DNA from: Heterodontus francisci
Lineage: Eukaryota
Length of the DNA stretch: 64,000 nucleotides
Direction of reading: 5' to 3'
NCBI RefSeq assembly: GCF_036365525.1
Contig: NC_090399.1
Span: forward strand, 66,210,862 to 66,274,861
Positions 12,531 to 64,000 of the stretch are shown here, piece by piece (positions within the stretch are counted from its first letter, which is position 1; the number at the start of each line of letters is the position of its first letter). Under the pieces are notes generated by a model, which was not told where the DNA came from, ran no database searches, and worked only from the letters and a program-made list of their open reading frames with translations. The translations under genes and the position numbers were made by a program.

Positions 12531-13326
12531 ATCTGGCAGTGAGGGGACACCCCGATGGAGGTCTCTCTACGCGGGAGTCTTCCCCCTTTACATCGGGGAC
12601 CTGGGGTGGAGGGTGTTGCGCAGAGCAGTCCCGTGCAATAGACTTTTAAGTAGGTTCACGGACTCCCAGGCCGCCTGTCCTTTCTGCGGCCTGGTCGAGT
12701 CTGTGTTTCACATATATATGGAGTGTGCGAGGTTGCAGCCCCTGTTTCAGTATTTGAAGGGGCTGCTCCTCAAGTTCTGGCTGCACTTCAGTCCCACGCT
12801 CCTGATCTTTGGGCACCCGGTGAGGGGGTGCATGGGATGGGAGGAGGATCTCCTCGTCGGTCTGCTCCTGGGCCTGGCCAAGGTGGCAATTCACAGGTCC
12901 AGGCTGCAGGCCATCTGGGGGTCCGTCCTCCCTGATTGCCTGCCCCTCTTCCGCGGTTACGTTCGCGCCCGGGTGTCCCTGGAGAAGGAGTATGCGGTGT
13001 CCGGCGGTACGGTTGAGGCCTTCCATGACCGGTGGGCACCGCAGGGACAGGAGTGCATCGTCGATGCCGAAAATGGCATTTAATTTGAGTTTTTGCTTTA
13101 TTCATCTGTTTTTAATAAAGTTATTTTTTTTTAAAATGTATATAAAGGGGGCCTGAGGAATAAAGGCCCCCTCGACATAAAATATATAAAAAGGGCCTGG
13201 AGTATAAAGGTCACCTAGAAAAAAATGGGGTTAGAAAAAGAAAGGGGGCCTGAGGAATAAAGGCCCCCTCGACATAAAATATATAAAAGAGACCTGGGGT
13301 ATAAAGGCCACCTTATATTTAAAAAA
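12531..13326 (+). mobile_element. Tx1-clade non-LTR retrotransposon, 5'-truncated copy (copy 0)
   Basis: ORF 12613-13083 matches the ORF2 C-terminus of the downstream copies (CPFCGLVESVFHIYMEC zinc finger); 3' UTR hairpins and A-tail. Confidence 0.92.
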
Positions 13327-13809
13327 CGGGGTTAGATACAGAGTAAAGCTCCCTCTACACAGTCCCCATCAAATACTCCCAGGGCAGGTACAGCTCAGGG
13401 TTAGAGACAGAGTAAAGCTCCCTCTACACTGTCCTCACCAAACACTCCCAAGCCAGGTACAGCATGGGGTTAGATACAGAATAAAACTCCCTCTACACTG
13501 TCCCCATCAAATACTCCCAGGGCAGGTACAGCTCAGGGTTAGAGACAGAGTAAAGCTCCCTCTACACTGTCCTCACCAAACACTCCCAAGCCAGGTACAG
13601 CACGGGGTTAGATACAGAATAAAGCTCCCTCTACACTGTCCCCATCAAATACTCCCAGGGCAGGTGCAGCTCAGGGTAAGAGACAGAGTAAATCTCTCTC
13701 TACACTGTCCTCACCAAACACTCCCAAGCCAGGTACAGCACGGGGTTAGATACAGAATAAAGCTCCCTCTACACTGTCCCCGTCAAACACTCCCAGGACA
13801 GGTACAGCA
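13327..13809 (+). repeat. 69-bp minisatellite, exactly 7 units (Tx1 target array)
   Basis: Unit CGGGGTTAGATACAGAGTAAAGCTCCCTCTACACTGTCCCCATCAAACACTCCCAGGACAGGTACAGCA; units start at 13327, 13396, 13465, 13534, 13603, 13672, 13741. Confidence 0.95.
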
Positions 13810-14487
13810 CTGGGATTGGCTGCTGTCTGATTTGGGAGCCTGAGTGTTGAGAGCCTCAACGAGGTGCAGCTGAGAGTGCTGGTGGCAGTTGGAGGTTGCA
13901 GACGTGGAGAGAGGAGCTGCACTGAGCAAGGGAGAGCAGCTACCAACAAGCAGAGGAAAACTCCAACAACAGTCTCCATTAAAGAGAAGAAAGGGACATT
14001 TTTTGGAAACAAGGCTTTGTCTGGAGGTGGGTGCTGAACACCAGTAATTTACTTTGGACTGTTGGGGGAGGAACAAGTGGCTGGAACAACAAGGGGTGGG
14101 GCTGCCAATTCAGCAGGAATCTGTGCTGCTGCAAAACCACACAGGGAAGCTCCCTCCCCACCCCAATTGCCAAGCCTGGGTCAGCTGAAGCTGCCCAGCT
14201 AAACAGACGGAAGGGGATAGATAGTGCCTGGGCAGCTTCAGCTGACCCAGGTGAAGACGACTCCCCCAACCAGAAGACCAACTTCAAAGACTGTTTGTTT
14301 TAAGTGTACTGTGAGCACCACCTCCAGAAAGCAAGTCATCCCTTCCAGCCTGCCTTTGCCTCTCCTCTCTTACCTCAGCCTCTCCACTAACCTGTTGTTT
14401 GTTTGTTTGTCTTTTCAAATTTTTCTGTGAGTCGCTGTTATTTAGTGTGCAAGTCCACAATTTGGGGTGGGTTTAGCTCTTAGACCC

Positions 14488-16530
14488 ATGGCAAGCCCTT
14501 CATCACCGGTGGCGGGGCCCTCTACTACCTACGCAGCTGCAGCTTCTGTGGCTGCCCACGTGGCCCCGTCACCCTTTAAATTATTGACATGCAGCCATGG
14601 GGTGAAGAGCTATCCCCACCCCAACATGTCTATTGAGGCCTGCGTTAAGGCAATGGCCGTGGTTGTCGGCCCCTCGGCCATTGTTGCGGCCTCAAAGATG
14701 TATGGGAAGGCTGTGTTCTTTCTGAAGACCGAGCGGGCGGTGTCCCTGGCACTGAGTAAAGGGCTCACTGTGGGGGGGACCTTCCTGCCAGTGGACCCTC
14801 TGGGGGCCACTGCGCATCGGATAATGTTGTCCAATGTCCCACCCTTCATTCCCAGTGAGCTCCTCCTCCCCCACCTGCACCATCTAGGGGAGGTGAGGTC
14901 GGGGATCACCCCAGTCCGGCTTGGTCTTCGGGAGCACAGCCTCCAACATGTCTACTCCTTCCGCCGCCAGTTATTTATGCAGCTGGCGCGGGAGGAGGAC
15001 ACGGAGGGCCAATTTAATGTGGAGTTCCAAGGGACGGCCTACCGCGTCATTTGGACCTCGGACGGGGCGCGGTGCCACGTCTGCAAGGGGGTGGGGCATG
15101 TTCGTAAGAACTGCCCCAACCTCCCGGCCGCCAGCTCCACCTCGGCGGCCCAGAGTGGTTCCACAGCACCTCCTCCCACTCCCCCCGCACATCCAACAGA
15201 CACCGCTCAGTAGGTTCCGGAGGCTGTGGTTTTCACAGCCTCTGGCGGGGAGGGGAGCGTCCGTCCGAGCGGAAGGAAGACGCGGGGAAAAAAGAAACAT
15301 CGTGAGGCGCGTCCCCTGGACACTTTGACTCAACCCGAGCCTGAGCTCAGCCCAAAGCCCATTCCCATGGAATCCACCTGTCCCAGGGCTGGGCTCAGGC
15401 CCAGGGTGACTATAAAGGGAAAAAAGGGTGCGGAGGCGGAGGCCTCTGATGACATGGAGGTCTCTGAGTCTCCGCGCCCAAGTGCGAAAAAGAGGAGAAG
15501 GCACCCCTCCACAGAAATAACACAGGGCCCTGAGGTGCAGGGCCCATCTGTTGGAGGGGAGCTGCCTCCTGTTTCTGGTCCTCAGGTGCCCCCTACCGCC
15601 ACCACCAAGGCTACAAAGTCCGGGCAGGTGCTCCCTATTCCTCAGGATGGAGGGGAGGGGATGGCCCCGGTACATGAGGCCCCTCCTGAAGGAGTAAGTG
15701 GGGCCCTGCTTGTGGTGGGGGAGCCTGGGGAAGCTGCCCATTCCGCCACTGCTACTGGGTCGGGTGTCCTGAATGAAGGGGAGGGCGAGGCCCCAGAGGG
15801 TCGGGCCTCCCAGCCGGAGTCCACCACCAACCAGGAGACACCCGACCCAGTTATAACTGAGAATGCTGCCCCATCTGCTGGGCCTGTGGGTGCTGGCGGA
15901 GCGGGAGATCGCCTCCTCCCTCCGCCTCCAGTCTCGGCTCCGGCTGGTTTCCCGGAGTCGGGAACTTCTGTCTCCCCTGGACCACACATTGCCCTGGGGA
16001 CGGAGGTGGAGGGGGTTCCTGAACCGCTGGTGCCTACAGGCTCCAGTTTCACAATAGAACCCAGAGAGGACTCCTCCGCCATCGATCCTGGGGGTGGGAT
16101 CGTGACGGAGGCGGGACCAGCTGGCGCGGCCGGGACGTCCGCCCCACAGTGTGTGGTGGATGTGTCGGCCGCTGGCGGTGACGACCCGGAGGAGGATGGG
16201 GATTCGGTGCGGGGCACGGAGGATGATCTTGATTCCATCGCCAGTGAGGTGGTGGAGTCCCTCGTGCCTCCCACCGAATCTCCTCTCATCCCCACGGCGG
16301 AACTCCGGGATTTCCTCGCGGCTTGCAGAGGTTGCCGCAATAAAGTTCAGCTGGCCCTCGACCGTTGGTCGAATCTGGTGCTGATCATCCAGTCCATCCG
16401 TGCCGCCCTTAAGATAGCGGGCAAGCACGCGGACGTGAAACTGGTTGAGAGGCGCCGTTTTAATGTGTTCCTCAATGGGTTGCTGGGGGAGTGGAGGGCC
16501 AGGTGCACTTCCACTCCCTCCTCACAGTGA
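14488..16530 (+). pseudogene. Tx1 ORF1 (nucleic-acid-binding protein, ~680 aa) with one nonsense codon
   Basis: MASPS start, ASKMYGKAVFFL, LSNVPPFI, CHVCKGVGHVRKNC; TAG at 15211-15213 where copy C has TCG; same frame continues to 16530. Confidence 0.88.
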
Positions 16531-16562
16531 GGTGTTTGTGACGGGTTTTAATTACCTTTGAC

Positions 16563-19500
16563 ATGAAGATAACCATAGCCAGCCTCAACATCAACGGCAG
16601 CAGAGGGGCTCACCGCAGATTTCACAATCTCTCAGTCCTCAGGGAAGGGAGATACGCGGTGAGCTTTCTGCAGGAAACCCACACCGTTCCGGGAGACGAA
16701 GCCACCTGGCTCCTGGAGTGGCAGTGGGGTGGCTATCTTGTTGGCCCCGACTTTTCAGCCGGAGATCTTGGGGGTCAAGGAGCTAGTGCCGGGCCGCTTG
16801 CTCCACCTCGCCGTTCGCCTGGGTAGCGTGCCGCTCCACTTTGTGAACGTGTACGCGCCCAGGCCTGGCGCGTTGCAAGCGCGCTTCTTTGAAGAAGTGT
16901 CCGCTCTCTTGAGCTCCATCGATAGCGGCGAGTGCATCATCCTCGGGGGGGATTTTAACTGCACCCTCGAGGTGGGGGATCGCTCCAGTCCCCAGCGCGG
17001 CCAAGCGTCGGTGGAGAAGTTGAGGGGACTGATCAGCTCCCTTAACTTGGTGGACGTCTGGCAGAATCTCCATCCCGACTCCAGCGCCTTCACGTGGAGG
17101 TCTGGAGGAGGGGGGTCGCGAATCGACCGCCTCTACATTTCGCAGGCGTACGTCTCCCGCGTTTCGGCGGCCTCCATGCGGCTGGTGCCGTGCTCGGACC
17201 ACCACCTGGTGTGGGCGGAGTTTACTCCGCTCCGCACGCGGGCAGGGTCCGCGTACTGGCACTTTAACAACCGGCTGCTGGAGGACGTGCGATTTCGGGA
17301 CTCGTTCTGTCGATTCTGGGCCGACTGGAGAAGGAAGCAGGGGGGCTTCCCCTCCTTGAGGCTATGGTGGGATGTGGGCAAGACTCACATCCGCGTCTTC
17401 TGTCAGGAGTACGCGAAGGGGTCGACCAAGAGGCGGGTAGCCGAGATCGGGCGCCTTGAGAGGGAGGTGCTTGACTTGGAGTCCCGCCTCGGTCATGCCG
17501 TCGTGGACCCGGCTCTGTGGCAGGCGTACAAAGAGAAGAAGGGCGCGCTGAGGGACCTGCAGCTCATAGGGTCCCGAGGCGCGTACGTGAGGTCGCGGAT
17601 CCAGATCCTGGAAGATTTGGACCGCGCCTCTCCCTTCTTCTACTCGCTGGAAAAATGGCGGGGGGTCCGTAAGCAGCTCATCGAGCTGCTGGCCGACGAC
17701 GGATCCTCCATCACGGATCCGGAGGGAATGGGCCTCCTGGTCCGGACGTATTACAGTGCGTTGTTCTCTCCGGATCCGTCCAGCGAGGATGCGCGCAGAG
17801 TTTTGTGGGAGGACCTGCCGCAGGTCAGCCCGGAGGGCGCCGAAGGATTGGTGGCTCCGCTCACGTTGGCGGAGCTGACTGGCGCCCTCCACCAGCTCTC
17901 GTGGGGCAAATCCCCAGGGCTGGATGGGTTGACCCTGGAGTTCCTCAGGGCGTTCTGGGACGTCCTGGGGGACGATTACGCGCGGGTCCTGGGGGAAAGC
18001 CTGGCGACCGGGGAGATGCCCCTCTCGTGGCGCAGGGCGGTCATCGTCCTGCTGCCGAAGAGGGGCGATCTCCGCCTGCTTAAAAACTGGCGTCCGGTCT
18101 CCCTCCTCAGCACGGATTATAAGATCTTTGCCCGGGCTATGTCTACCCGCCTGTGCTCCGTGCTGGCCCACATGATCCACCCCGACCAGTCCTACACAGT
18201 CCCGGGCCGGTCCATCCAGGACAACATCCACCTGGTCCGGGACCTGATCCATCTTTCCCAGAGGACTGGTCAGTCGGTCGCCTTTCTCTCCCTCGATCAG
18301 GAGAAGGCGTTCGACAGGGTGGATCACGATTACCTTTTCGGGACTCTGCGCGCTTTCGGACTCGGGCCGCATTTCGTGGCCCGGGTCCGACTTTTATACG
18401 CCGCCGCAGAGTGTCTAGTCAAAGTTAACGGGTCCTTGACGGCGCCCCTTCGCTTTGGGAGAGGAGTGCGTCAGGGGTGCCCCATGTCCGGCCAATTGTA
18501 TACCATCTGCGTGGAGCCCTTCCTGTGCCTGCTTCGCAGGAGGTTGACGGGATTGGCTCTGCGCGAGCCGGCCATGCGGGTCGTCCTCTCGGCTTACGCC
18601 GACGACGTGCTCCTCGCAATCACAGATCCCGTTGACTTGCGGAGGATGCGCGACTGCCAGCAGACCTTTTCTGCCGCGTCCTCCGCGAGGATCAATTGGG
18701 AGAAATGTTCCGGACTCCTGGTTGGTCAGTGGCGGGTGGACTCCCTGCCGGAGGAGATGACACCTTTTGCGTGGAGAACCACGCACCTCCTCTATCTGGG
18801 AGTCCACCTTAGCCCCGCTGAGGAAGCCTGGCCGGCAAACTGGCAGGAGTTGGAGGCGAAAGTCACCGCTCGGCTGGGGCGCTGGACAGGACTGCTCCGA
18901 GTGCTTTCCTACAGGGGCCGAGTGTTGGTCATAAACCAACTGGTGGCCTCCATGCTGTGGTACCGGTTGGTCACTTTGGCCCCGCCCCCTGTATTTGCCA
19001 CCAAGATCCGGAAGAAACTCATCGATTTCTTCTGGGGCAAGAGGAAACACTGGGTCTCTGCCGCGGTCCTGAGTCTCCCGATCGAGGAGGGCGGTCAGTC
19101 GCTGGTGTGCGTCCGCACCCAGGCTGCGACTCTCCGCCTTCGGACCCTGCAGAGATACCTGTACGTCGAGCGTCCTCCCAGATGGTGTGCGCTGGCGACG
19201 TATTTTTTCCGCCAGTGTCACTGCCTTCAAGACGACACGCAGCTCCCGGTGGAGTCCGTTAGCCGCGCCTCTCTGAGGGAGTTGCCTGTCTTTTACCGGG
19301 ATCTTTTCCGAGTCTGGAACATGGTCGCCTCCAGTCAGGGCGCTCCCCCGCCGGCGGAGGAGAGCGCCTCGGCTGTCCGGGCGGCCGACTCCGGGGACGG
19401 TCCGGCGGGCGGAGGAGTAGCCGAAACCCCCGGGACGCCCCTCACTGCGGGTGGCGAGGGGGCTCGGGAGTGCGGAGCGATCCCGGCCGAGCTGACCCCC

Positions 19501-20262
19501 GCTCGGCCGGAACTGCTCATCGGACCCAGGCCCCGAAACCCTCCTCGGGAGCCAGTCCCGCACAACCCGAGCCGCCTCTCGGAAATGCCCTCCGTGCCAT
19601 TCCAATCGGCGCGGAGGGGTTTCCTGTACGGGCTGCTCCTGCACACTCTCCACTTCCTCGCCCTCGTCAGCCGGCCGGACACGCCCTGGCGGTCCGCGTT
19701 GCCATCTGGCGGCGAGGGGAAACCTCGATGGAGGTCTCTCTCCGCGGGAGTCTTCCCCCTTTACATCGGGGACCTGGGGTGGAGGGTGCTGCACAGAGCA
19801 GTCCCGTGCAATAGGCTTTTAAGTAGGTTCACGGACTCCCAGGCCACCTGTACTTTCTGCGGCCTGGACGAGTCCGTGTTCCACGTTTATACGGAGTGTG
19901 CGAGGTTGCAGCCCCTATTTGAGTATCTGAAGGGGCTGCTCCTCAAATTCTGGCTGCACTTCAGTCCCACGCTCCTGATCTTTGGGCACTCGGTGCGGAG
20001 GGGCTTGGGCCGGGAGGAGGATCTCCTCGTCGGTCTGGTCCTGGGCCTGGCCAAGGTTGCAATTCACAGGTCCAGGTTGCGGGCCGTCGGGGGGTCCGTC
20101 CTCCCCGATTGCCTGCCCCTCTTCCGCGGTTACGTTCGCGCCCGGGTGTCCCTGGAAAAGGAGCATGCGGTGTCTGCCGGTACGCTTGAGGCCTTCCGCG
20201 ACCGGTGGGCAACGCAGGGACTGGAGTGCATAGTCGACGCCGAGAATGGCATTTTAATTTGA
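16563..20262 (+). pseudogene. Tx1 ORF2 (APE endonuclease, reverse transcriptase, CCHC finger), frameshifted by a 38-bp deletion
   Basis: SLNING, FLQETH, GGDFN, RIDR, SDH; KNWRPVSLL, LDQEKAFDRV, GVRQGCP, AYADD; CTFC..H..C; 38 nt missing at ~16724 relative to copy B. Confidence 0.92.
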
Positions 20263-20400
20263 GTTTTTTGTTTATTTATCTGTTTTTAATAGTGATTTTA
20301 AAAATATAAGTGTGTATATAAAGGGGGCCTGAGGAATAAAGGCCCCCTCGACATACAAAATATATATAATGGGGGCCTGAGGAATAAAGGCCCCCTCGAC

Positions 20401-20638
20401 AAAAAAAAAACGGGGGTTCGATACAGAGTAAAGCTCCCTCTGCACTGTCCCCATCAAACACTCCCAAAAAAAAAGAAAAAAAAACGGGATTACATACAGA
20501 GGAAAGCTCCCTCCACACAAAAAAAAACGGGGTTTGATACAGAGTAAAGCTCCCTCCACAAAAAAAAAAACGGGGTTTGATACAGAGTAAAGCTCCCTCG
20601 ACACTGTCCCATTAAACACTCCCAGGACAGGTACAGCA
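20401..20638 (+). repeat. Stack of poly(A) tracts alternating with truncated and full 69-bp target units
   Basis: Units start at 20411, 20485, 20528 and 20571, each directly after an A-run; only the last is complete. Confidence 0.9.
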
Positions 20639-21346
20639 CAGGGATTGGCTGGTCAATTTGGAGCACTTCCTGCCAGCAATCAGGGGGAGCAGCTGCACCT
20701 GTGTTGCTGCAACTGGAGAGGAGAGAGGAGACTGGAGTTACTGCAGAGAGGTGACTGTAGACAGCTGTATTTACTGTGGAACTGTTGCACTTTTTCAAGA
20801 CTAAGAAGACCTGAGAGTCATTTTGGAGAGGTGGGTGTTGGAACACCAGAGAACTGTTGGTTGTTTGGACTGTTGGGGGAGGGAGAAGGCACCGGAAGAT
20901 CCAGGGGTGGGGCTGCCAAATTCTATAGGGAGCCCCTGTACGAGCTCTTGTGTTTATCTGCCATCCTGCACAAAAGGGGCTCCCTCCCCACCCCCAACTG
21001 TGTGGCTCGGGACGGCTGGAGCTGCCCGGCTGAAGAAAATCCTTATACAACAACAGAAAAGGGAGAGAACCGGGCGGCTCTAACCGACCCGGGCGAAGAA
21101 CCCTCCCCTAACTGGAAGAGTGGACTGTCGACTCTGCAGGAAGGTGCTCCAACCACCAATTGAAGTGTAACATCCTTGCAGCTGTTCTCTCTCTTCCATC
21201 ACTCGGCCACCTATCCTCTCCTCTCCTTGTCCTTTTCAGCCCTATCCTCCTCTATTCCCATCCCCCCCTCCCCCATCATATTGCTTGTGTTAAAGAAAAC
21301 TGTCGTGTGTTTTGTTTCTTGGGGGTGGGCGTAGCTCTGCGACCCC

Positions 21347-23378
21347 ATGGCAAGCCCCTCTTTGCCGGTGGCGGGGCCTTCCCGTTCATATGCTGCTGCG
21401 GCTGCACCTGTTGCCCCGTCACCGTTTGCTTTATTAACATCGAAGCATGGGGTCAAGAGCTATGTCCACCCAAACATGACTATAGAGGCATGCATGAAAG
21501 CAATGGCCGAGGTTGTCGGCCCTTCGGCCATTGTTGCAGCCTCTAAAATGTACGGGAAGGCAGTGTTTTTCCTGAAGACCGAGCGGGCGGTGTCCCTGGC
21601 TCTGAGCAAGGGGCTCACCGTGGGCGGGACCTTTCTGCCAGTGGACCCCCTGGAGGCCACTGCGCAAAGGCTCATTCTATCCAATGTCCCGCCCTTCATT
21701 CCTGGTGAGCTCCTCCTTCCCCACCTGCACCATCTGGGGGAGGTAAAGACGGGGCTCACCCCAGTCCCGCTCAGTCTTCGGGAGAACAGCCTCCGACACG
21801 TGTACTCCTTCCGCCGCCAGTTATTCATGCAGCTGGCGCGGGTGGAGGTGACAGAGGGCCACTTTAATATAGAATTCCAGGGGACGGCCTACCGCGTCTT
21901 CTGGACCTTGGACGGGGTGCGGTGCCATGTCTGTAAGGGGGTGGGGCATGTTCGTAAGAACTGCCCCAACCTCCCGGCTGCCAACTCCAACTTGGCGGCC
22001 CAGGTTGGCGACGCTGCACCTCCTCCCACCCCCCCCTACACCTCCACCAGATACCATTCAGTCGGTACCGGAGGCTGTGGTTTTCACGGCCTCCGGCAGG
22101 GAGGGGGGTGACCGTCCAAGTGGAAGGAAGGCGCGGAGGAGAAATAAACATCGAGAGGCGCGTCCCCTGGACACCGTGAGACTACCCGAGTCTGAGATCA
22201 GCACAAAGCCCGATCTCGGGAAGTCAACTTGCCCCAGGGCTGGGCTCAGGGCCAGGGTGAATAAAAAAAAGGAGAGTGTGGAGGTGGAGGCCTCTGATGA
22301 TATGGAGGTCTCTGAGCCTCCGCACACAACTGGGAAAAAGAGGAGAAGGCACCCCTCCACAGAGGTAACAAGGGGCCCTGAGGCGCAGGGCCCATCTGTT
22401 GGAGGGGAGCTGTCTCCTGTTTCGGGTCCCCAGGCTTCCCCTACCGCCACCACCAAGGCTGCAAAGTCCGGGCAGGAGCACTCTATTCCTCAGGATGGAG
22501 GGGAGGGGAAGGCCCCGGTACTTGAGGCCCCTCCTGAAGGAGTAAGTGGGGCCCTGCTTGTGGTGGGGGAGCCTGGGGACTCCGCCCATTCTGCCACTGC
22601 TACTGGGTCGGGTGCTCTGAATGAAGGGGAGGGCGAGGCCCCAGAGGGTCGGGCCTCCCAGCCGGAGTCCACCACCAACCAGGAGACACCCGACCCAGTT
22701 ATAACTGAGAATGCTGCCCCATCTGCTGGGCCTGTGGGTGCTGGCGGAGCGGGAGATAGCCTCCTCCCTCTGCCTCCAGTCTCGGCTCCGGCTGGTTTCC
22801 CGGAGTCCGGAACTTCTGTCTCCCCTGGACCACACATTGCCCTGGGGACGGAGGTGGAGGGGGTTCCTGAACCGCTGGTGCCTACAGGCTCCAGTTTCAC
22901 AATAGAACCCAGAGAGGACTCCTCCGCCATCGATCCTGGGGGTGGGATCGTGACAGAGGCGGGACCAGCTGGCGCGGCCGGGACGTCCGCCCCACAGTGT
23001 GTGGTGGATGTGTCGGCCGCTGGCGGTGACGACCCGGAGGAGGATGGGGATTCGGTGCGGGGCACGGAGGATGATCTTGATTCCATCACCAGTGAGGTGG
23101 TGGAGTCCCTCGTGCCTCCCACCGAATCACCTCTCATCCCCACGGCGGAACTCCGGGATTTCCTCGCGGCTTACAGGGGTTGCCGCAATAAACTACAGCT
23201 GGCCCTCGACCGTTGGTCGAATCTGGCGCTGATCATAGAGTCCGTCCGTGCCGCTCTTAAGATAGCGGGCAAGCGTGCGGACGTGAAACTGATTGAGAGG
23301 CGCCGTTTTAATGTGTTCCTCAATGGGTTGCTGGGGGAGTGGAGGGCCAGGTGCACTTCCACTCCCTCCTCACAGTGA
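21347..23378 (+). pseudogene. Tx1 ORF1, frameshifted near a C-run (~22030)
   Basis: ORFs 21347-22111 and 21927-23378 together match copy A ORF1 in different frames. Confidence 0.88.
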
Positions 23379-23410
23379 GGTGTTTGTGTCGGGTTTTAAG
23401 TACCTTTGAC

Positions 23411-26400
23411 ATGAAGATAACCATAGCCAGCCTCAACATCAACGGCAGCAGAGGGGCTCACCGCAGATTTCACAATCTCTCAGTCCTTAGGGAAGGGAGA
23501 TACGCGGTGAGCTTTCTGCAGGAAACCCACACCGTTCCGGGAGACGAAGCCACCTGGCTCCTGGAGTGGCAGGGTGGGGTCTACATGAGTCACCTCACCC
23601 CTATTTCTAGTGGGGTGGCTATCTTGTTGGCCCCGACTTTTCAGCCGGAGATCTTGGGGGTCAAGGAGCTCGTGCCGGGCCGCTTGCTCCACCACGCCGT
23701 TTGCCTGGGTAGCGTGCCGCTCCACTTTGTGAACGTGTACGCGCCCAGGCCCGGCGCGTTGCAAGCGCGCTTCTTTGAAGAAGTGTCCGCTCTCTTGAGC
23801 TCCATCGATAGCGGCGAGTGCATCATCCTCGGGGATTTTAACTGCACCCTCGAGGTGGGGGATCGCTCTGGTCCCCAGCGTGGCCAAACGTCGGTGGAGA
23901 AGTTGAGGGGACTGATCAGCTCCCTTAACTTGGTGGACGTCTGGCGGAATCTCCATCCCGACTCCAGCGCCTTCACGTGGAGGTCTGGAGGAGGGGGGTC
24001 GCGAATCGACCGCCTCTCCATTTCGCAGGTGTACGTCTCCCGCATTTCGGCGGCCTCCATGCGGCTGGTGCCGTGCTCGGACCACCGCCTGGTGTGGGCG
24101 GAGTTTACTCCGCGCCGCATGCGGGCGGGGTCCGCGTACTGGCACTTGAACAACCGGCTGCTGGAGGACGTGCGATTTCGGGACTCGTTCTGTCGATTCT
24201 GGGCCGACTGGAGAAGGAAGCAGGGGGGCTTCCCCTCCTTGAGGCTATGGTGGGATGTGGGCAAGACTCACATCCGCGTCTTCTGTCAGGAGTACGCGAA
24301 GGGGTCGACCAAGAGGCGGGAAGCCGAGATCGGGCGCCTTGAGAGGGAGGTGCTCGACTTGGAGTCCCGCCTCGGTCATGCCATCGTGGACCCGGCCCTG
24401 TGGCAGGCGTACAAAGAGAAGAAGGGCGCGCTGAGGGACCTGCAGCTCATAGGGTCCCGAGGCGCGTACGTGAGGTCGTGGATCCAGATCCTGGAAGATT
24501 TGGACCGCGCCTCACCCTTCTTCTACTCGCTGGAATAATGGCGGGGGGTCCGTAAGCAGCTCGTCGAGCTGCTGGCCGACGACGGATCCTCCATCACGGA
24601 TCCGGAGGGAATGGGCCTCCTGGTCCGGACTTATTACAGTGCGTTGTTCTCTCCGGATCCGTCCAGCGAGGATGCGCGCAGAGTTTTGTGGGTGGACCTG
24701 CCGCAGGTCAGCCCGGAGGGCGCCGAAGGATTGGAGGCTCCGCTCACGTTGGCGGAGCTGACTGGCGCCCTCCACCGGCTCTCGAGGGGCAAATCCCCAG
24801 GGCTGGATGGGTTGACCGTGGAGTTCCTCAGGGCGTTCTGGGACGTCCTGGGGGAAAGCCTGGCGACCGGGGAGATGCCCCTCTCGTGGCGCAGGGCGGT
24901 CATCGTCCTGCTGCCGAAGAGGGGCGATCTCCACCTGCTTAAAAACTGGCGTCCTGTCTCCCTCCTCAGCACGGATTATAAGATCTTTGCCCGGGCTATG
25001 TCTACCCGCCTGGGCTCCGTGCTGGCCCACATGATCCACCCCGACCAGTCCTACACGGTCCCGGGCAGGTCCATCCAGGACAACATCCACCTGGTCCGGG
25101 ACCTGATCCATCTTTCCCAGAGGACTGGTCAGTCGGTCGCCTTTCTCTCCCTCGATCAGGAGAAGGCGTTCGACAGGGTGGATCACGATTATCTTTTCGG
25201 GACTCTGCGCGCTTTGGGACTCGGGCCGCATTTCGTGGCCCGGGTCCGACTTTTATGCGCCGCCGCAGAGTGTCTAGTCAAAGTTAACGGGTCCTTGACG
25301 GCGCCCCTTCGATTTGGGAGAGGAGTGCGTCAGGGGTGCCCCATGTCCGGCCAATTGTATACCATCTGCGTGGAGCCCTTCCTGTGCCTGATTCGCAGGA
25401 GGCTGACGGGATTGGCTCTGCGCGTGCTGGCCATGCGGGTCGTCCTCTCGGCTTACGCCGACGACGTGCTCCTCGCAATCACAGATCCCGTTGACTTGCG
25501 GAGGATGCGCGACTGCCAGCAGACCTTTTCTGCCACGTCCTCCGCGAGGATCAATTGGGAGAAATGTTCCGGACTCCTGGTTGGTCAGTGGCGGGTGGAC
25601 TCCCTGCCGGAGGAGATGACACCTTTTGCGTGGAGAACCACGCACCTCCTCTATCTGGGAGTCCACCTTAGCCCCGCTGAGGAAGCCTGGCCGGCAAACT
25701 GGCAGGAGTTGGAGGCGAAAGTCACCGCTCGGCTGGGGCGCTGGACAGGACTGCTCCGAGTGCTTTCCTACAGGGGCCGAGCGTTGGTCATAAACCAACT
25801 GGTGGCCTCCATGCTGTGGTACCGGTTGGTCACTTTGGCCCCGCCCCCTGTATTTGCCACCAAGATCCAGAAGAAACTCGTCGATTTCTTCTGGGGCAAG
25901 AGGAAACACTGGGTCTCTGCCGCGGTCCTGAGTCTCCCGATCGAGGAGGGCGGTCAGTCGCTGGTGTGCGTCCGCACCCCGGCTGCGACTCTCCGCCTTC
26001 GAACCCTGCAGAGATACCTGTACGTCGAGCATCCTCCCAGATGGTGTGCGCTGGCGACGTATTGTTTCCGCCAGTGTCACTGCCTTCAAGACGACACGCA
26101 GCTCCCGGTGGAGTCCGTTAGCCGCGCCTCTCTGAGGAAGTTGCCTGTCTTTTACCGGGATCTATTCCAAGTCTGGAACATGGTCGCCTCCAGTCAGGGC
26201 GCTCCCCCGCCGGCGGAGGAGAGCGCCTCGGCTGTCCGGGCGGCCGACTCCGGGGACGGGTCGGCGGGCGGAGGAGTAGCCGAAACCCCCGGGACGCCCC
26301 TCACTGCAGGTGGCGAGGGGGCTCGGGAGTGCGGAGCAATCCCGGCCGAGCTGACACCCGCTCGGCCGGAACTGCTCATCGGACCCAGGCCCCGAAACCC

Positions 26401-27121
26401 TCCTCGGGAGCCGGTCCCGCACAACCCGAGCCGCCTCTCGGAAATGCCCTCCGTGCCATTCCAATTGGCGCGGAGGAGTTTCCTGTACGGTCTGCTCCTG
26501 CACACTTTCCACTTCCTCGCCCTCATGAGCCGGCCGGACACGCCCTGGCGGTCCGCGTTGCCATCTGGCGGCGAGGGGATACCCCGATGGAGGTCTCTCT
26601 ACGCGGGAGTCTTCCCCCTTTACATCGGGGACCTGGGGTGGAGGGTGCTGCACAGAGCAGTCCCGTGCAATAGGCTTTTAAGTAGGTTCACGGACTCCCA
26701 GGCCACCTGTACTTTCTGCGGCCTGGATGAGTCCGTGTTCCACATTTATACGGAGTGTGCGAGGTTGCAGCCCCTATTTGAGTATCTGAAGGGGCTGCTC
26801 CTCAAATTCTGGCTGCACTTCAGTCCCACGCCCCTGATCTTTGGGCACCCAGTGCGGAGGGGCTTGGGCCGGGAGGAGGATCTCCTCGTCGGTCTGCTCC
26901 TGGGCCTGGCCAAGGTGGCAATTCACAGGTCCAGGTTGCGGGCCGTCGGGGGGTCCGTCCTCCCCGATTGCCTGCCCCTCTTCCGCGGTTATGTTCGCGC
27001 CCGGGTGTCCCTGGAAAAGGAGCATGCGGTGTCCGCCGGCAGGCTTGAGACCTTCCGCGACCGGTGGGCACCGCAGGGACTGGAGTGCATTGTCGACGCC
27101 GAGAATGGCATTTTAATTTGA
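23411..27121 (+). pseudogene. Tx1 ORF2 with one nonsense codon and two in-frame deletions
   Basis: ATG at 23411; TAA at 24536-24538 where copy A has AAA; ILGDF vs ILGGDF; DVLGES vs DVLGDDYARVLGES. Confidence 0.92.
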
Positions 27122-27258
27122 GTTTTTTGTTTATTTATCTGGTTTTAATAAAGTTATTTTAAAAATATAAGTGTGTATATAAAGGGGGCCTGAGGAATAA
27201 AGGCCCCCCTCAACATAAAAAATATATAAAAGGGGCCTGGGGTATAAAGGTCACCTTG

Positions 27259-27397
27259 AAAAAAAAAATGGGGGTTAGAAAAAAAAACGGGGTTAGATAC
27301 AGAGTAAAAAAAAAGAAAAAAAAAAACGGGGTTAGATACAGAGTCAAGCTCCCTCTACACTATCCACATCAAACACTCGCAGGACAGGAAAAAAAAA
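27259..27397 (+). repeat. Second stack of poly(A) and truncated 69-bp target units
   Basis: Units start at 27269, 27288 and 27327 (about 10, 18 and 62 nt), each after an A-run; the final A-run abuts the 5' end of copy C. Confidence 0.9.
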
Positions 27398-30300
27398 CTG
27401 GGATTGGCTCCTCTCTGATTGGGAATACTGAGTGCTGAGTGCCTCAATGAGGTGCAGCTGACAGTGCTGCAGTCAGTTGCTGGAGAGGGAGAGCTGAGGA
27501 GGGAACTGCAAAAAAACCTTTCAACAACTTTTGCTGCAGAGGAGGAAAGACTTTGAAAAAGGCTGTATTTCGAGCACAAAACTTTCATTTCATTTGGACT
27601 GTTGTGGGAGATGAAAGAGGCCAGAAGAACAAGGGGTGGGGGCTATACAATTCTGCAGGGAGCTGTGCAGTTGCACTGAAGTTGCAGGGAAGCTCCCTCC
27701 CCACCTCAATTGCCCAGCCTGAGTCAGCTGAAGCTGCCTGGATAATAGAGACATAAGGATCGAACTAGAGCCTGGGTAGCTTTCGGCTGACCCAGGTGAA
27801 GACCCCTCCCACAACCAGAAGACCGGAAGACCAAAAGTGTTTACAGTGCTCTGAGTACCACCCTTTAAGGGGAAAAAAAGCAAAGTCATCGCTTGCAGCC
27901 TGTCTTTCCCATTTCCTGTATACCCTCAGTCTCTCCCCAAACCTCCTAGTTGGTTTCTTTGTTTGTTTGCTTGCTTGCTTACCTGCAAATTGGGGGTGGG
28001 TTTGGCTCTTGAGCCATGGCAAGCCCATCATCACCGGTGGCGGGGCCTTCTCATACCTATGCGGCTGTAGCCTCTGTGGCCACCCGTGTGACCCCGTCAC
28101 CTTTTAAATTCATTACTTCAAGCCATGGGGTAAAGAGCTAACCCCACCCCAATATGTCTATAGAGGCCTGCGTAAAGGCAATGGCCGAGGTTGTCGGCCC
28201 CTCGGCCATTGTGGCAGCCTCAAAAATGTACGGGAAGGCTGTGTTCTTCCTGAAGACCGAGCGGGCCGTGTCCCTGGCCCTGAGTAAAGGGCTCACTGTG
28301 GGTGAGACTTTCCCGCCGGTGGACCCTCTAGGGGCCACTGCGCAGCGGATAATCTTATCAAACGTCCCGCCCTTTATTCCCAGTGAGCTCCTCCTTCCCC
28401 ACCTGCACCACATGGGGGAGGAGAGGTCGGGGATCACCCCAGTCCGGCTTGGTCTTCGGGAGCACAGCCTCCAACATGTCTACTCCTTCCGCCGCCAGGT
28501 ATTTATGCAGCTGGCGCGGGAGGAGGACTCGGATGGCCAATTTAATGTGGAGTTCCAGGGGACGGTCTACCGCGTCTTTTGGACCTCGGACGGGGCGCGG
28601 TGCCATGTCTGCAAGGGGGTGGGGCATGTTCGTAAGAACTGCCCCAACCTCCCGGTCGCCAGCTCCACCTCGGCAGCCCAGGGTCCTCCCACTCCCCCCA
28701 CACATCCAACAGACACCGCTCAGTCGGTTCCGGAGGCTGTGGTTTTCACAGCCTCCAGCGGGGAGGGGACCGCCCGTCTGAGTGGAAGGAAGACGCGGAG
28801 GCAAAAGAAACATCAAGAGGCGCGTCCCCTGGACACATTGAAACAACCCGAGCCTGAGCTCAGCCCAAAGCCCGTTCTCACGGAATCCACCTGTCCCAGG
28901 GCTGGGCTCAGGCCCAGGGTGACCAAAAAAAAGGAGGGTGCGGAGGCGGAGGCCTCTGATGACATGGAGGTCTCTGAGCCTCTGCGCCCTAGTGTGAAAA
29001 AGAGGTGAAGGCACCCCTCCACAGAGGTAACGAGGGGCCCTGAGGCGCAGGGCCCATCTGTTGGAGGGGAGCTGTCTCCTGTTTCGGGTCCCCAGGTTTC
29101 CCCTACTGCCACCACCAAGGCTACAAAGTCCAGGCAGGAGCTCCCTATTCCTCAGGATGGAGGGGAGGGGAAGGCCCCGGTACTTGAAGCCCCTCCTGAA
29201 GGAGTAAGTTGGGCCCTGCTTGTGGTGGGGGAGCCTGGGGACGCCGCCCATTCTGCCACTGCTACTAGGTCGGGTGCCCTGAGTGAAGGGGAGGGTGAGG
29301 CCGAGGCCCCAGAGGGTCGGCCCTCCCAGCCGGAGTCCACCACCAACATGGAGACACCTGACCCGGTTATAACCAAGAATGCTGCACCATCTGCTGGGCC
29401 TGTGGGTGCTGGTGGAGCTGGAGATGGCCTCCTCTCGCCGCCTCCGGTCTCGGCTCCGGCTGGATTTCCGGAGTCGGGAACTTCTGTCTCCCCTGGACCA
29501 CTCATTGGCCTGGGGACGGAGGTGGAGGGGGGTCCTGAACTGCTGGCGCCCACAGGCTCCAGTTTCACAGTAGAACCCAGAGAGGACTCCTCCGCCATCG
29601 ATCCTGGGGGTGGGATCGTGACGGAGGCAGGGCCAGCTGGCGCGGCTGGGACATCCGCCCCACAGTGTGTGGTGGATGTGTCGGCCACTGGCGGTGACGA
29701 TCCGGAGAAGGATGGGGATTCGGTGCGGGGCACGGAGGATGATCTTGATTCCATCGCCAGTGAGGTGATGGAGTCCCTCGTGCCTCCCACCGAATCTCCT
29801 CTCATCCCCACGGCGGAACTCCGGGATTTCCTCGCGGCTTGCAGGGGTTGCCGCAATAAAGTTCAGCTGGCCCTCGACCGTTGGTTGAATCTGGCGCTGA
29901 TCATCCAGTCCGTCCGTGCCGCCCTTAAGATAGCGGGCAAGCGCGCAGACGTGAAACTGGTTGAGAGGCGCCGTTTTAATGTGTTCCTCAATGGGTTGCT
30001 GTGGGAGTGGAAGGCCAGGTGCACTTCCACTCCCTCCTCACAGTGAGGTGTTGGTGACGGGTTTTAAGTACCTTTGACATGAAGATAACCATAGCCAGCC
30101 TCAACATCAACGGCAGCAGGGGGTCTCACCGCAGATTTCACAATCTCTCAGTCCTTGGGGAAGGGAGATACGCGGTGAGCTTTCTGCAGGAAACCCACAC
30201 CGTTCCGGGAGACGAAGCCACCTGGCTCCTGGAGCGGCAGGGTGCAGCCCTTCTTTGAATATTTAAAGGGGTTGCCCCTCAAGCTTTGGCTGCACTTCAG

Positions 30301-30460
30301 CCCCACGCTCCTGATCTTTCAGCACCTGGTGTGAAGGGGGGTGTGTCAGGAGGAGGATCTCCTCGTCAGTCTGCTCCAGGGCCTGGCCAAGGTGGCAATT
30401 CACGGGTCCAGGTAGTGGGCAGTTGGGGAGTCCGTTTGACTTATTGCCTGCCCCTTTTCT
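27398..30460 (+). mobile_element. Tx1-clade copy C: 5' UTR, disrupted ORF1, start of ORF2 joined to a diverged ORF2 C-terminal fragment
   Basis: ORF1 ATG 28016, frameshift ~28103, TGA 29006, end 30046; ORF2 ATG 30079 breaks at ~30243 into a ...QPFFEYLKG.. region. Confidence 0.9.
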
Positions 30461-46620: not shown

Positions 46621-46844
46621 AAAGAATGCTGACTTGGGACACAAACACTAACACTGTCATTCTGTTTGAATATTTTACTCACACATTTCCCATTTCTCTC
46701 CCTCTCCTGGTTTAATTTCTTCACATCGTTTAGTTTTGCCTTAATTTGTGGTTCCGAAAGAACATCCTCTCCTCCGCTCACTGGACCCAGTGTCGACATT
46801 TCCTTGTTCACCATCTTCAGACCCGGAGCCAACCCCCATCCACC

Positions 46845-48200
46845 CCACCCCGGGTCACCATTCCCCACACACCAGGAATCCCACCCCCACCATGGGCTCC
46901 CAAACACTCCCCCACTCCACCCCGGGTCACCATTCCCCACCCACCAGCAATCCACCCCCACCCTGGGCTCCCAAACACTCCCCCACTCCACCCCGAGTCA
47001 CCATTCCCCACCCACCAGCAATCCCACCCCCACCCTGGGCTCCCAAACACTCCCCCACTCCACCCCGGGTCACCATTCCCCACCCACCAGCAATCCACCC
47101 CCACCATGGGCCCCAAACACTCCCCCACTCCACCCCGGGTCACCATTCCTCACACACCAGGAATCCCACCCCCACCATGGGCTCCCAAACACTCCCCCAC
47201 TCCACCCCGGGTCACCATTCCCCACCCACTGGCAATCCCACCCACACCCTGGGTCCCCAAACACTCCTCCACTCCATCCCAGGTCACCATTCCCCACACA
47301 CCAGCAATCCCACCCACACCCTGGGTCCCCAAACACTCCCCCACTCCACCCCGTGTCACCATTCCCCACACACCAGCAATCCCACCCCCACTCTGGGTCC
47401 CCAAACACCCCCCCACTCCACCCCGGGTCACCATTCCCCACCCACCAGCAATCCCACCCACACCCTGGGTCCCCAAACACTCCCCCACTCCACCCCGGGT
47501 CACCATTCCCCACCCACCAGCAATCCCACCCACACCCTGGGTCCCCAAACACTCCCCCACTCCACCCCGAGTCACCATTCCCCACCCACTGGCAATCCCA
47601 CCCCCACCCTGGGTCCCCAAACACCCCCCCACTCCACCCCGGGTCACCATTCCCCACCCACCAGCAATCCCACCCCCACCCTGGGTCCCCAAACACTCCC
47701 CCACTCCACCCCGTGTCACCATTCCCCACCCACTGGCAATCCCACCCCCACCCTGGTCCCCAAACACTCCCCCACTCCACCCCGAGTCACCATTCCCCAC
47801 CCACTGGCAATCCCACCCCCACCCTGGGCTCCCAAACACTCCCCCACTCCACCCCGGGTCACCATTCCCCACCCACCAGCAATCCCACCCACATCCTGGG
47901 TCCCCAAACACTCCCCCACTCCACCCCGTGTCACCATTCCCCACCCACTGGCAATCCCACCCCCACCCTGGGCTCCCAAACACTCCCCCACTCCACCCCG
48001 GGTCACCATTCCCCACCCACCAGCAATCCCACCCCCACCCTGGGCTCCCAAACACTCCCCCACTCCACCCCGGGTCACCATTCCCCACCCACCAGCAATC
48101 CCACCCCCACCCTGGGCCCCCAAACACCCCCCACTACACCCCGAGTCACCATTCCCCACCCACTGGCAATCCCACCCCCACCCTGGGCCCCCAAACACAC
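46845..48200. repeat. 72-bp C-rich minisatellite, ~19 units
   Basis: Unit CCCCGGGTCACCATTCCCCACCCACCAGCAATCCCACCCCCACCCTGGGTCCCCAAACACTCCCCCACTCCA. Confidence 0.95.
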
Positions 48201-48285
48201 CCCTGTCCCCCTCCCCCAAACTTACATCACCCAGAGTCCGCACGGCCCCAGTGAGCATTTTGGCCATTTTCTCTCCAATTCCTAC

Positions 48286-48502: not shown

Positions 48503-50465
48503 ACACTGACCCTCCCTCCCTCCTGGAGTGAGACTGGATCCTCACACAGCTCAGCACTGACCCTCCCTCCTGTAGTGAGACTGGATCCTCACACAGCTCA
48601 GCACTGACCCTCCCTCCCTCCTGTAGTGAGACTGGATCCTCACACAGCTCAGCATGGACCCTCCCTCCTGTAGTGAGACTGGATCCTCACACAGCTCAGC
48701 ACTGACCGTCCCTCCTGTAGTGAGACTGGATCCTCACACAGCTCAGCACTGACCCTCCCTCCCTCCTGTAGTGAGACTGGATCCTCACACAGCTCAGCAC
48801 TGACCCTCCCTCCTGTAGTGAGACTGGATCCTCACACAGCTCAGCACTGACCCTCCCTCCCTCCTGTAGTGAGACTGGATCCTCACACAGCTCAGCACTG
48901 ACCCTCCCTCCCTCCTGGAGTGAGACTGGATCCTCACACAGCTCAGCACTGACCCTCCCTCCTGTAGTGAGACTGGATCCTCACACAGCTCAGCACTGAC
49001 CCTCCCTCCCTCCTGTAGTGAGACTGGATCCTCACACAGCTCAGCACCGACCCTCCCTCCCTCCTGTCGTGAGACTGGATCCTCACACAGCTCAGCACTG
49101 ACCCTCCCTCCCTCCTGTAGTGAGACTGGATCCTCACACAGCTCAGCACTGACCCTCCCTCCTGTAGTGAGACTGGATCCTCACACAGCTCAGCACTGAC
49201 CCTCCCTCCTGTAGTGGAGACTGGATCCTCACACAGCTCAGCACTGACCCTCCCTCCTGTAGTGAGACTGGATCCTCACACAGCTCAGCACTGACCCTCC
49301 CTCCTGTAGTGAGACTGGATCCTCACACAGCTCAGCACTGACCCTCCATCCTGTATTGAGACTGGATCCTCACACAGCTCAGCACTGACCCTCCCTCCTG
49401 TAGTGGAGACTGGATCCTCACACAGCTCAGCACTGACCCTCCCTCCTGTAGTGAGACTGGATCCTCACACAGCTCAGCACTGACCCTCCCTCCTGTAGTG
49501 AGACTGGATCCTCACACAGCTCAGCACTGACCCTCCCTCCTGTAGTGAGACTGGATCCTCACACAGCTCAGCACTGACCCTCCCTCCTGTAGTGAGACTG
49601 GATCCTCACACAGCTCAGCATGGACCCTCCCTCCTGTAGTGAGACTGGATCCTCACACAGCTCAGCCCTGACCCTCCCTCCTGTAGTGAGACTGGATCCT
49701 CACACAGCTCAGCACTGACCCTCCCTCCTGTAGTGAGACTGGATCCTCACACAGCTCAGCACGGACCCTCCCTCCTGTAGTGAGACTGGATCCTCACACA
49801 GCTCAGCACTGACCCTCCCTCCTGTAGTGAGACTGGACCCTCACACAGCTCAGCACTGACCCTCCCATCTGCAGTGAGACTGGATCCTCACACAGCTCAG
49901 CACTGACCCTCCTTCCTGTAGTGAGACTGGATCCTTACACAGCTCAGCACTGACCCTCCTTCCTGTAGTGAGACTGGATCCTCACACAGCTCAGCACTGA
50001 CCCTCCCTCCTGTAGTGAGACTGGATCCTCACACAGCTCAGCACGGACCCTCCCTCCTGTAGTGAGACTGGATCCTTACACAGCTCAGCACTGACCCTCC
50101 TTCCTGTAGTGAGACTGGATCCTCACACAGCTCAGCACTGACCCTCCCTCCTGTAGTGAGACTGGATCCTCACACAGCTCAGCACGGACCCTCCCTCCTG
50201 TAGTGAGACTGGATCCTCACACAGCTCAGCACTGACCCTCCCTCCCTCCTGTAGTGAGACTGGATCCTCACGCAGCTCAGCACTGACCCTCCCTCCTGTA
50301 GTGAGACTGGATCCTCACACAGCTCAGCCCTGACCCTCCCTCCTGTAGTGAGACTGGATCCTCACACAGCTCAGCACGGACCCTCCCTCCTGTAGTGAGA
50401 CTGGATCCTCACGCAGCTCAGCACTGACCCTCCCTCCCTCCTGTAGTGAGACTGGATCCTCTCAC
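48503..50465. repeat. 47/51-bp minisatellite, ~41 units
   Basis: Unit CACTGACCCTCCCT(CCCT)CCTGTAGTGAGACTGGATCCTCACACAGCTCAG. Confidence 0.95.
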
Positions 50466-51112: not shown

Positions 51113-51490
51113 CACTCGCTCACTCTCAGTTCCCCCCCCACTCGCCCACTCTCCAGTTCCCCCCCACTCGCTCACTCTCCAGTTCCCCCCCACTCGCTCA
51201 CTCTCCAGATCCCCCCACTCGCTCACTCTCCAGTTCCCCCCCACTCGCTCACTCTCCAGTTCCCCCCCACTCGCTCACTCTCCAGTTCCCCCCCACTCGC
51301 TCACTCTCCAGTTCCCCCCCACTCGCTCACTCTCCAGTTCCCCCCCACTCGCTCACTCTCCAGTTTCCCCCCATTCGCTCACTCTCCAGTTCCCCCCCAC
51401 TCGCTCACTCTCCAGTTCCCCCCCACTCGCTCACTCTCCAGTTCCCCCCCACTCGCTCACTCTCCAGTTCCCCCCCACTCGCTCACTCTC
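51113..51490. repeat. 26-bp minisatellite
   Basis: Unit TCCAGTTCCCCCCCACTCGCTCACTC, ~14 copies. Confidence 0.9.
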
Positions 51491-63400: not shown

Positions 63401-64000
63401 CGCTCACTCTCAGTTCCCCCCTCACTCGTTCCCTCGCTCTCAGTTCCCCCCTCACTCGTTCCCTCGCTCTCAGTTCCCCCCCTCACTCGTTCCCTCGCTC
63501 TCAGTTCCCCCCCTCACTCGTTCCCTCGCTCTCAGTTCCCCCCTCACTCGTTCCCTCGCTCTCAGTTCCCCCCTCACTCGTTCCCTCGCTCTCAGTTCCC
63601 CCCTCACTCGTTCCCTCGCTCTCAGTTCCCCCCTCACTCGTTCCCTCGCTCTCAGTTCCCTCCTCACTCGTTCCCTCGCTCTCAGTTCCCTCCTCACTCG
63701 TTCCCTCGCACTCAGTTCCCCCCTCACTCGTTCACTCGCTCTCAGATCCCCCCTCACTCGTTCACTCGTTCTCAGATCCCCCCTCACTCGTTCCCTGACT
63801 CTCAGTTCCCCCCTCACTCGTTCCCTGACTCTCAGTTCCCCCCTCACTCGTCCCCCCGCTCAGTTCCCCCCTCACTTGTTCCCTCGCTCTCAGTTACCCC
63901 CTCGCTCGTCCCCTCGCTCTCAGTTCCCCCCTCGCTCTCAGTTCCCCCCTCGCTCGTCCCCTCGCTCTCAGTTCCCCCCTCGCTCTCAGTTCCCCCCTCG
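51490..64000. repeat. 30-bp pyrimidine-rich minisatellite, >12.5 kb, running off the window, with higher-order duplications
   Basis: Unit CTCAGTTCCCCCCTCACTCGTTCCCTCGCT with variants; roughly 400 units. Confidence 0.97.

Follow-up and report, generated by a model that had tools for sequence, protein, structure and literature searches.

Full-length copies of an apparently sequence-specific LINE of the Tx1 clade appear to rebuild a usable target at their own 5′ junction, onto which later copies insert. We consider such re-targeting of a hybrid site the likely best explanation of the observations taken as a whole. Re-use of the hybrid junction is supported because inserts at it are flanked by duplications of the older copy's 5′ end and because upstream copies are younger; from these patterns we infer cleavage. 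A single insertion point, duplications of 1–13 bp at both types of site, 3′ transduction and capture of host mRNAs could all be read from the DNA. The features concerned are collected in Table 1, where the window is the whole 64,000-nucleotide stretch analysed.

Table 1. Features of the window, and 5′-end duplications at numbered junction loci
Feature	Position or locus	Strand	Remarks
Older 5′-truncated copy, 3′ end only	12531..13326	+	5 target bases lost at left flank
Seven 69-bp target repeat units (CGGGGTTAG...ACAGCA)	13327..13809	+	
Copy A, full-length Tx1-clade LINE with A-tail	13810..20410	+	
Copy A ORF2, open part	16663..20262	+	APE-type endonuclease (partial in frame) and reverse transcriptase
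Three truncated units plus A-runs, following copy A	20411..20570	+	
Single whole target unit separating copies A and B	20571..20638	+	
Copy B, full length	20639..27268	+	A10 tail
Truncated unit 1, 10 bp (27269-27278), and A9	27269..27287	+	
Truncated unit 2, 18 bp (27288-27305), and A9-G-A11	27288..27326	+	
Truncated unit 3, 62 bp	27327..27388	+	without last 7 bases
A9, directly joined to copy C	27389..27397	+	
Conserved 5′ 12-mer CTGGGATTGGCT of copy C	27398..27409	+	inverted CCAAT inside
Copy C, 5′ UTR, ORF1 and start of ORF2	27398..30244	+	
ORF2 3′ fragment joined to copy C	30239..30459	+	without tail
5′-end duplication	L009		9 bp
5′-end duplication	L105		10 bp
5′-end duplication	L017, L118		13 bp, one mismatch each
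5′-end duplication	L020, L122, L125		13 bp
5′-end duplication	L124		4 bp

Because of its APE and reverse transcriptase (RT) domains, its RT phylogeny and its two ORFs with a poly(A) tail, we assign the element to the Tx1 clade of non-LTR retrotransposons. ORF2 of the window copies and of one intact copy matched PF03372 (APE endonuclease) and PF00078 (reverse transcriptase) above cut-off, and shared 50% identity with Xenopus Tx1 across 1299 columns. A midpoint-rooted RT tree of 23 rows, with no named L1 outgroup, placed it with Xenopus Tx1 and with proteins of sturgeon, stingray and turtle in a clade of 6 rows (support 100/100). The most identical named match of ORF2 came from Heterodontus francisci (93% over 29% of the query), and sequencing-run contigs from two organisms contained both the 69-bp target unit and the element. 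Both ORFs were open in many copies (ORF1 ~690 aa, ORF2 ~1250 aa); a Pfam search of ORF1 found no match. At least five subfamilies have a common ORF2 and differ in 5′ UTR and ORF1 starts, with the first 12 bases kept in all. GC hairpins whose loop contains AATAAA or TATAAA are repeated in the 3′ UTR (window 27184-27256 and equivalents; z −2.5); copy B has two, and the number differs among copies.

In the window, copy A starts with CTGGGATTGGCT (13810) and copy B with CAGGGATTGGCT (20639), each directly after ACAGCA; the 5′ junction of copy A is seamless, and neither copy has a target duplication there. The 5′ UTRs diverge past this conserved start. Copy B, whose ORF2 frame is split by a frameshift near 24538, ends in its A-tail at 27259-27268 and is followed by three 3′-truncated repeat units, after which an A-run (27389-27397) abuts the first bases of copy C, just as the original prediction had described. 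The first of these stubs recurs at ~13227, inside the 3′ end that remains of the older copy, and the third carries 4 substitutions in 62 bp. Copy C belongs to an older subfamily and its 3′ part is missing; the ORF2 fragment joined to it is 82% identical to copies A and B. The left flank of the older copy at 12531 terminates in GGACAGGTA, with 5 target bases lost. Three more tandem arrays lie 16-34 kb downstream in the window (46840-48203, 48514-50465 and 51113-64000), built of 72-bp, 47-bp and 30-bp-based units respectively, the last spanning ~13 kb.

The insertion point falls between ACAGCA and CGGGGTTAGAT inside the 69-bp repeat. At one base of this repeat lay 903 + 175 5′ ends, a count from queries that contained the target and so covered on-target copies only. 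When the displaced CGGGGTTAGAT was compared with the element's first 12 bases, 8 positions matched with one gap, a score that only 0.6% of element-body 12-mers equalled, which bears out the resemblance first proposed for the 5′ ends. That all full 5′ ends begin C(T/A)GGG proved correct for copies A, B and C and too broad for the genome, where 175 mosaic junctions start CGGG(A/G)TTGGCT, part target and part element. Folding of the 5′ end or of the unit gave no structure beyond that of shuffled sequences (z 0.27 and −0.79).

We counted junctions genome-wide with exact patterns, which give lower bounds; reversed controls all returned 0. The A-tail to 5′-end junction that the original prediction asked to be counted (A8 directly before CWGGGATTGG) occurred at least 102 times, compared with 0 in its control. 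Intact 5′ junctions (GGTACAGCA before CWGGGATTGG) numbered at least 903 and mosaic ones (GGTACAGCA before CGGGRTTGGCT) at least 175, many of the latter clustered on one chromosome. A-tails abutted a unit (A8 before CGGGGTTAGA) at least 2375 times, and unit followed unit (GGTACAGCA before CGGGGTTAGA) at least 3514 times, for the four-G variant only; the 69-bp repeat may be far commoner than these exact-match counts. An A-tail was carried by ~10% of hybrid sites and ~40% of normal sites, figures both inflated by transduced copies and drawn from site types of different age. This suggests that the hybrid site is a weaker target than the normal one, receiving seemingly several-fold fewer insertions.

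Two irregularities accompanied these counts. About 30 mosaic CGGGATTGGCT junctions lie in one region of chromosome C29 (~54.7-63.5 Mb), probably a segmentally amplified copy. Matches of A8 to the unit were uneven by strand (851 vs 1524), which suggests one large tandem array of that junction.

We examined 92 of the 102 A-tail to 5′-end junctions. By script, a long 5′ end followed in 65 and was absent in 27; by eye the split was 64 to 28 (L002 moved in, L016 and L098 out). The 27-28 junctions without a long 5′ end mostly look like 3′ transductions, and one of the 92, L106, was an unrelated chance match. The preceding A-runs were interrupted in 49/92, by G in 31 loci and often near position 9-10; mixed tailing, one-base stubs or later mutation could be responsible.

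The same junction could come about in four ways: by re-use of the hybrid site, by template jumping, by re-use of a 3′ junction, or by transduction of a junction that already existed. What is duplicated, and the age order, tell them apart. At 8/92 junctions a duplication of 4-13 bp from the 5′ end of the older copy flanked the insert: ACAGCA came first with the initial 4-13 bases of that 5′ end, then the insert, then its A-tail joined to the 5′ end. Such duplications are what the proposal that a full-length insertion regenerates a usable target calls for. Each insert was a truncated copy or a host mRNA; internal deletion is excluded because four of the eight consist of non-element sequence. That at L118 is a histone H2B-type retrocopy (L118:1638-2012, minus strand) with an open frame and an A-tail; replication histone mRNAs usually lack one. 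An RPS27 retrocopy with an open frame (L021:996-1247) sits exactly at a hybrid junction, and no duplication was found around it. L094 and L112, in which CAGGG is kept ahead of a CAGGG-type copy, are ambiguous. It counts against the hybrid-site reading that duplications are visible at only these 8 of 92; they are hidden where the upstream copy is full length.

To avoid selecting on the right flank, we also searched from the left side, with patterns covering only some stub lengths. The 46 matches comprised 30 point variants of the 5′ UTR, one unrelated minisatellite, 12 cases of a 5′ stub with poly(A) and three of a 5′ stub with other (non-A, non-UTR) sequence. All three of the last class terminated in an A-tail joined to a 5′ end. 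The five stub-plus-poly(A) sites that were fetched, with 9-10-bp stubs, led to a repeat unit and not to a 5′ end; 5′ stubs can thus arise without the hybrid site and by themselves prove nothing. These short stubs fit transductions halted at microhomology, or abortive RNAs. At L111 and in the L126 group the order stub, insert, unit was seen after an A-run.

At normal sites, truncated copies kept target bases in 13/26 rows, 1-13 of them in 12 rows and 24 in one. The range of second-strand cutting is the same at hybrid and normal sites, since the 4-13-bp duplications of the former fall within the 1-13-bp duplications of the latter. Target deletions of 3-6 bp were seen at window position 12531 and at L003, L021 and L028.

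Age order agreed with the original expectation that upstream array copies are younger. A first comparison over 640 bp of ORF1 held too few differences and was replaced by comparisons of 2.2-6.4 kb per pair. In 16 of 19 pairs the upstream copy carried fewer private mutations (sign p=0.004), with totals of 227 upstream and 620 downstream in a balanced panel; changes in conserved columns were likewise fewer upstream in 16/19. CpG decay alone favoured the same order in 13 pairs and the reverse in 6 (sign p=0.17, Wilcoxon 0.024). All 19 pairs had been selected by length, not at random; two share a trimer, and some cross subfamilies, which inflates differences. For the window pair, itself across subfamilies, B had 33 and C 67 private mutations over 2236 columns; the window junction most likely reflects a B younger than C, an order that it fits without proving.

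These data bear on template jumping, in which the RT reaches the 5′ end of one RNA and jumps to the poly(A) of another in a single event at a normal site, as reported for R2 in the part of PMC2718515 available. Many full-length pairs do belong wholly to the youngest subfamily, the members at L113 and L128 are identical over the 640 bp compared, and the RPS27 retrocopy at L021 has no duplication. Jumping, however, predicts equal ages, contrary to the mutation totals, and duplications drawn from the unit instead of from the 5′ end; none of nine unit stubs matched the 3′ flank of the downstream copy. As a general account we regard it as very unlikely.

Re-targeting of the 3′ junction is about equally improbable as the main explanation. 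There, an A-tail joined to CGGGG keeps the true right half of the target, and a new full-length copy would be placed behind the older one. L007 has, behind an A-run, foreign DNA accompanied by a 15-bp duplication of the unit, and at L109, L098 and L096 an A-run precedes CGGGGTTGGCT or TGGGGATTGGCT, a 5′ end fused to A-tail and target bases. Since re-targeting of the L007 type yields the same junction in reverse order, it counts against a simple hybrid-site picture, and in 3/19 pairs the younger copy does lie downstream. The order is opposite in the other 16, C is the older copy in the window, and this route is unable to create 5′-end duplications; it probably remains a minority route beside re-use of the hybrid site.

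The truncated units between copies required a separate account. Duplication of the next unit was rejected as their origin: all private bases were shared in only 1 of 13 informative rows (mean of 0.4 in shuffles), and that stub lies in a local tandem array. Duplication by the downstream copy was also rejected, as 0/9 stubs shared private bases with its 3′ flank (14 flanks fetched, of which 6 were uninformative and 8 informative; the ninth stub came from a separate check). A flank shared by two loci indicates 3′ transduction: the unique flank is continuous at L172, and at L010 it breaks off in a poly(A) tract that runs straight into a 5′ end. The L172 element is 98% identical, and L172 is not the exact donor state because the stretch between element and flank differs. 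The lengths of 67 stubs cluster at 9-11 and ~29-45 bases, the longer class ending shortly after the unit's AGTAAA hexamer, which we take to be a weak poly(A) signal. Such transduction is the best reading of the truncated units in general and likely accounts for those after copy A, though the third of these may have arisen by duplication of the unit that follows it.

In ~25/92 junctions a 5′-end stub is followed by an A-run and then a unit, as expected for offspring of copies sitting before another copy; six of these share one composite tail and may be a single event. At L018-L020, a copy whose polyadenylation lies inside ORF1 is repeated head to tail as three units of 2.2 kb, a hybrid-site dimer expanded into a small array.

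For the window junction alone, a different history would have B enter a normal site lying one unit upstream, the last 7 bases of C's resident unit being removed by a poly(A)-only insertion at C's 5′ junction. The four substitutions of stub 3, no second copy of whose private variant was found in the assembly, would suit this, and the 3-6-bp target deletions supply a precedent. Yet long stubs before A-runs are common and usually unlike the next unit, and such an insertion would still require a cut at the hybrid site; we judge this history rather unlikely. Stub 3 may have been transduced with B, or may be C's resident unit trimmed by 7 bases at insertion, and under either reading the cut would have fallen at C's first base.

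A further alternative is that the 12-mer was kept as a promoter element, its likeness to the target being secondary or the fossil of a captured duplication. It contains ATTGG, an inverted CCAAT box which presumably approximates the NF-Y consensus, and copies A and C have a second motif, TGATT(G/T)GG, no more than 30 bp further on. The 12-mer also never converged on an exact copy of the target, although mosaics recreate it; with the inverted CCAAT, this makes a promoter constraint possible. Promoter function leaves the duplications, age order and mosaics unexplained, and the conserved length equals that of the overhang. Thus the early caveat that ATTGG might merely be a promoter box fails for the duplications and may still hold as a constraint on the motif. 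As a replacement for the hybrid-target explanation a promoter role is unlikely; the two are not mutually exclusive.

In the hybrid-site scheme that we favour, the LINE would nick ACAGCA/CGGGGTTAG in the 69-bp repeat, prime reverse transcription on its poly(A) and cut the second strand mostly within ~13 bases downstream. Truncated copies would keep the overhang as a duplication. Full-length copies would lack one because their first 12 bases resemble the overhang: the cDNA end would pair with the overhang and replace it. The product, ACAGCA directly before C(T/A)GGGATTGGCT, would be an imperfect but usable target. Later copies, transduced tails and host mRNAs would insert directly before the older copy, giving A-tail to 5′-end junctions, and truncated units would pile up from read-through transcripts whose polyadenylation falls in the unit downstream or in the 5′ end of the following copy. 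In the window, the 5′ junction of the older C would most likely have received B together with its tail. The same resemblance probably also splints 5′ joining, at the 175 mosaic junctions. Pairing with the overhang may thus underlie seamless and mosaic junctions alike, and the 12-mer may be under selection.

The proposal that arrays grow head to tail through the hybrid site is supported as to the route, which is the minor one. Another copy lay less than 1.5 kb upstream across whole units at 6/30 intact 5′ junctions. If these are representative, ~180 of the 903 would have a neighbour across whole units, compared with ~70 direct junctions. Spare repeat units, as between A and B, build more arrays than the hybrid site.

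The closest known system is Drosophila R1 in 28S rDNA. According to the available part of Stage and Eickbush (PMC2718515), R1 arrays form by insertion into a 14-bp duplication at the resident copy's 5′ end, never without it. Both are APE-type LINEs, R1 site-specific and the shark element apparently so, and in both new copies enter at the residents' 5′ junction and form head-to-tail arrays. R1 needs its 14-bp target duplication and uses rDNA, whereas the shark element targets a 69-bp repeat and its first 12 bases stand in for a duplication that full-length copies do not leave. What lies between partners here is poly(A), in some cases with transduced stubs, and not a target-site duplication of host DNA; the arrays work like R1 double insertion, yet are not of the R1 type. 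Double insertion was generalised to duplication-making elements as a source of tandem copies by McGurk and Barbash (10.1101/158386, in part). Their model shares with ours site preference and a preserved target that lead to dimers, but requires a duplication between partners that here are joined by poly(A) alone. For R2 and melanogaster-type R1, the same portion of PMC2718515 describes annealing of the cDNA 3′ end to the cut target, giving precise 5′ junctions; that pairing involves 2 terminal bases or upstream left-half rDNA, while the ~12 shark bases mimic the downstream right-half overhang.

Target-specific Tx1 families include Xenopus Tx1L, Keno, Kibi, Koshi and Tx1-Mar, and tandem SINEU-3 copies occur around a duplication (Kojima, PMC4494074, in the part available). 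The shark element resembles Tx1L in ORF2, in RT clade and, apparently, in sequence-specific insertion; its target differs from those of the Tx1 families, and that part of the source contains neither a self-regenerated target nor transduced stubs. In the literature searched, with Repbase Reports, most subscription journals and supplements outside its scope and some sources available only in part, no description of the family or of an element-encoded stand-in for a duplication was found; the family may already be deposited in a repeat library. What appears to be new is that stand-in, array building by double insertion being known.

The likeness to telomeric arrays that had been suggested holds in part. 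The accessible portions of PMC10088271 and PMC3446292 describe telomeric or nested elements (HeT-A/TART, Zepp and the anole telomere-specific Tx1-1_ACar), and head-to-tail or nested clusters, GGGTTAG in the target and distal sites are points in common. On chromosomes C3-C30, 38/44 junctions lay less than 15 Mb from an end, compared with 12.4 expected. The sites are nevertheless in distal domains, megabases from contig ends (8 Mb for the window itself), off the chromosome tips and not in chromosome-terminal repeats, with no sign of end extension, and Drosophila R1 in rDNA is the closer analogy.

If hybrid-site re-use is correct, a site-specific retrotransposon can keep targets available while leaving no duplication. 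From the mosaic junctions and the 1-13-bp duplications one could read with unusual clarity how the second strand is cut and the 5′ end joined, the half of LINE integration that is least understood. With many intact young copies, precise full-length 5′ joining and poly(A) mRNA retrocopies into one site, the family is a candidate vertebrate APE-type system for work on 5′ homology and insertion fidelity. More tentatively, and on balance somewhat doubtfully, LINE and repeat may form a self-propagating pair, with the 5′ end selected as a pseudo-duplication, transduction seeding and extending the distal 69-bp repeat, and the repeat serving as a sink for host retrocopies.

Shark chromosome ends are rich in tandem repeats, and the portion of that report available (10.1101/2022.10.17.512540) does not name the 69-bp repeat. 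A 15-mer from the unit was not found in the literature searched, Repbase Reports and subscription journals being outside its scope. The right half of the target includes GGGTTAG, seven bases of the vertebrate telomere repeat (unit positions 3-9, e.g. 13743-13749). In four sequencing runs the contig depth of the 69-bp unit was hundreds to thousands of times that of the element, as summed contig depth and not copy number.
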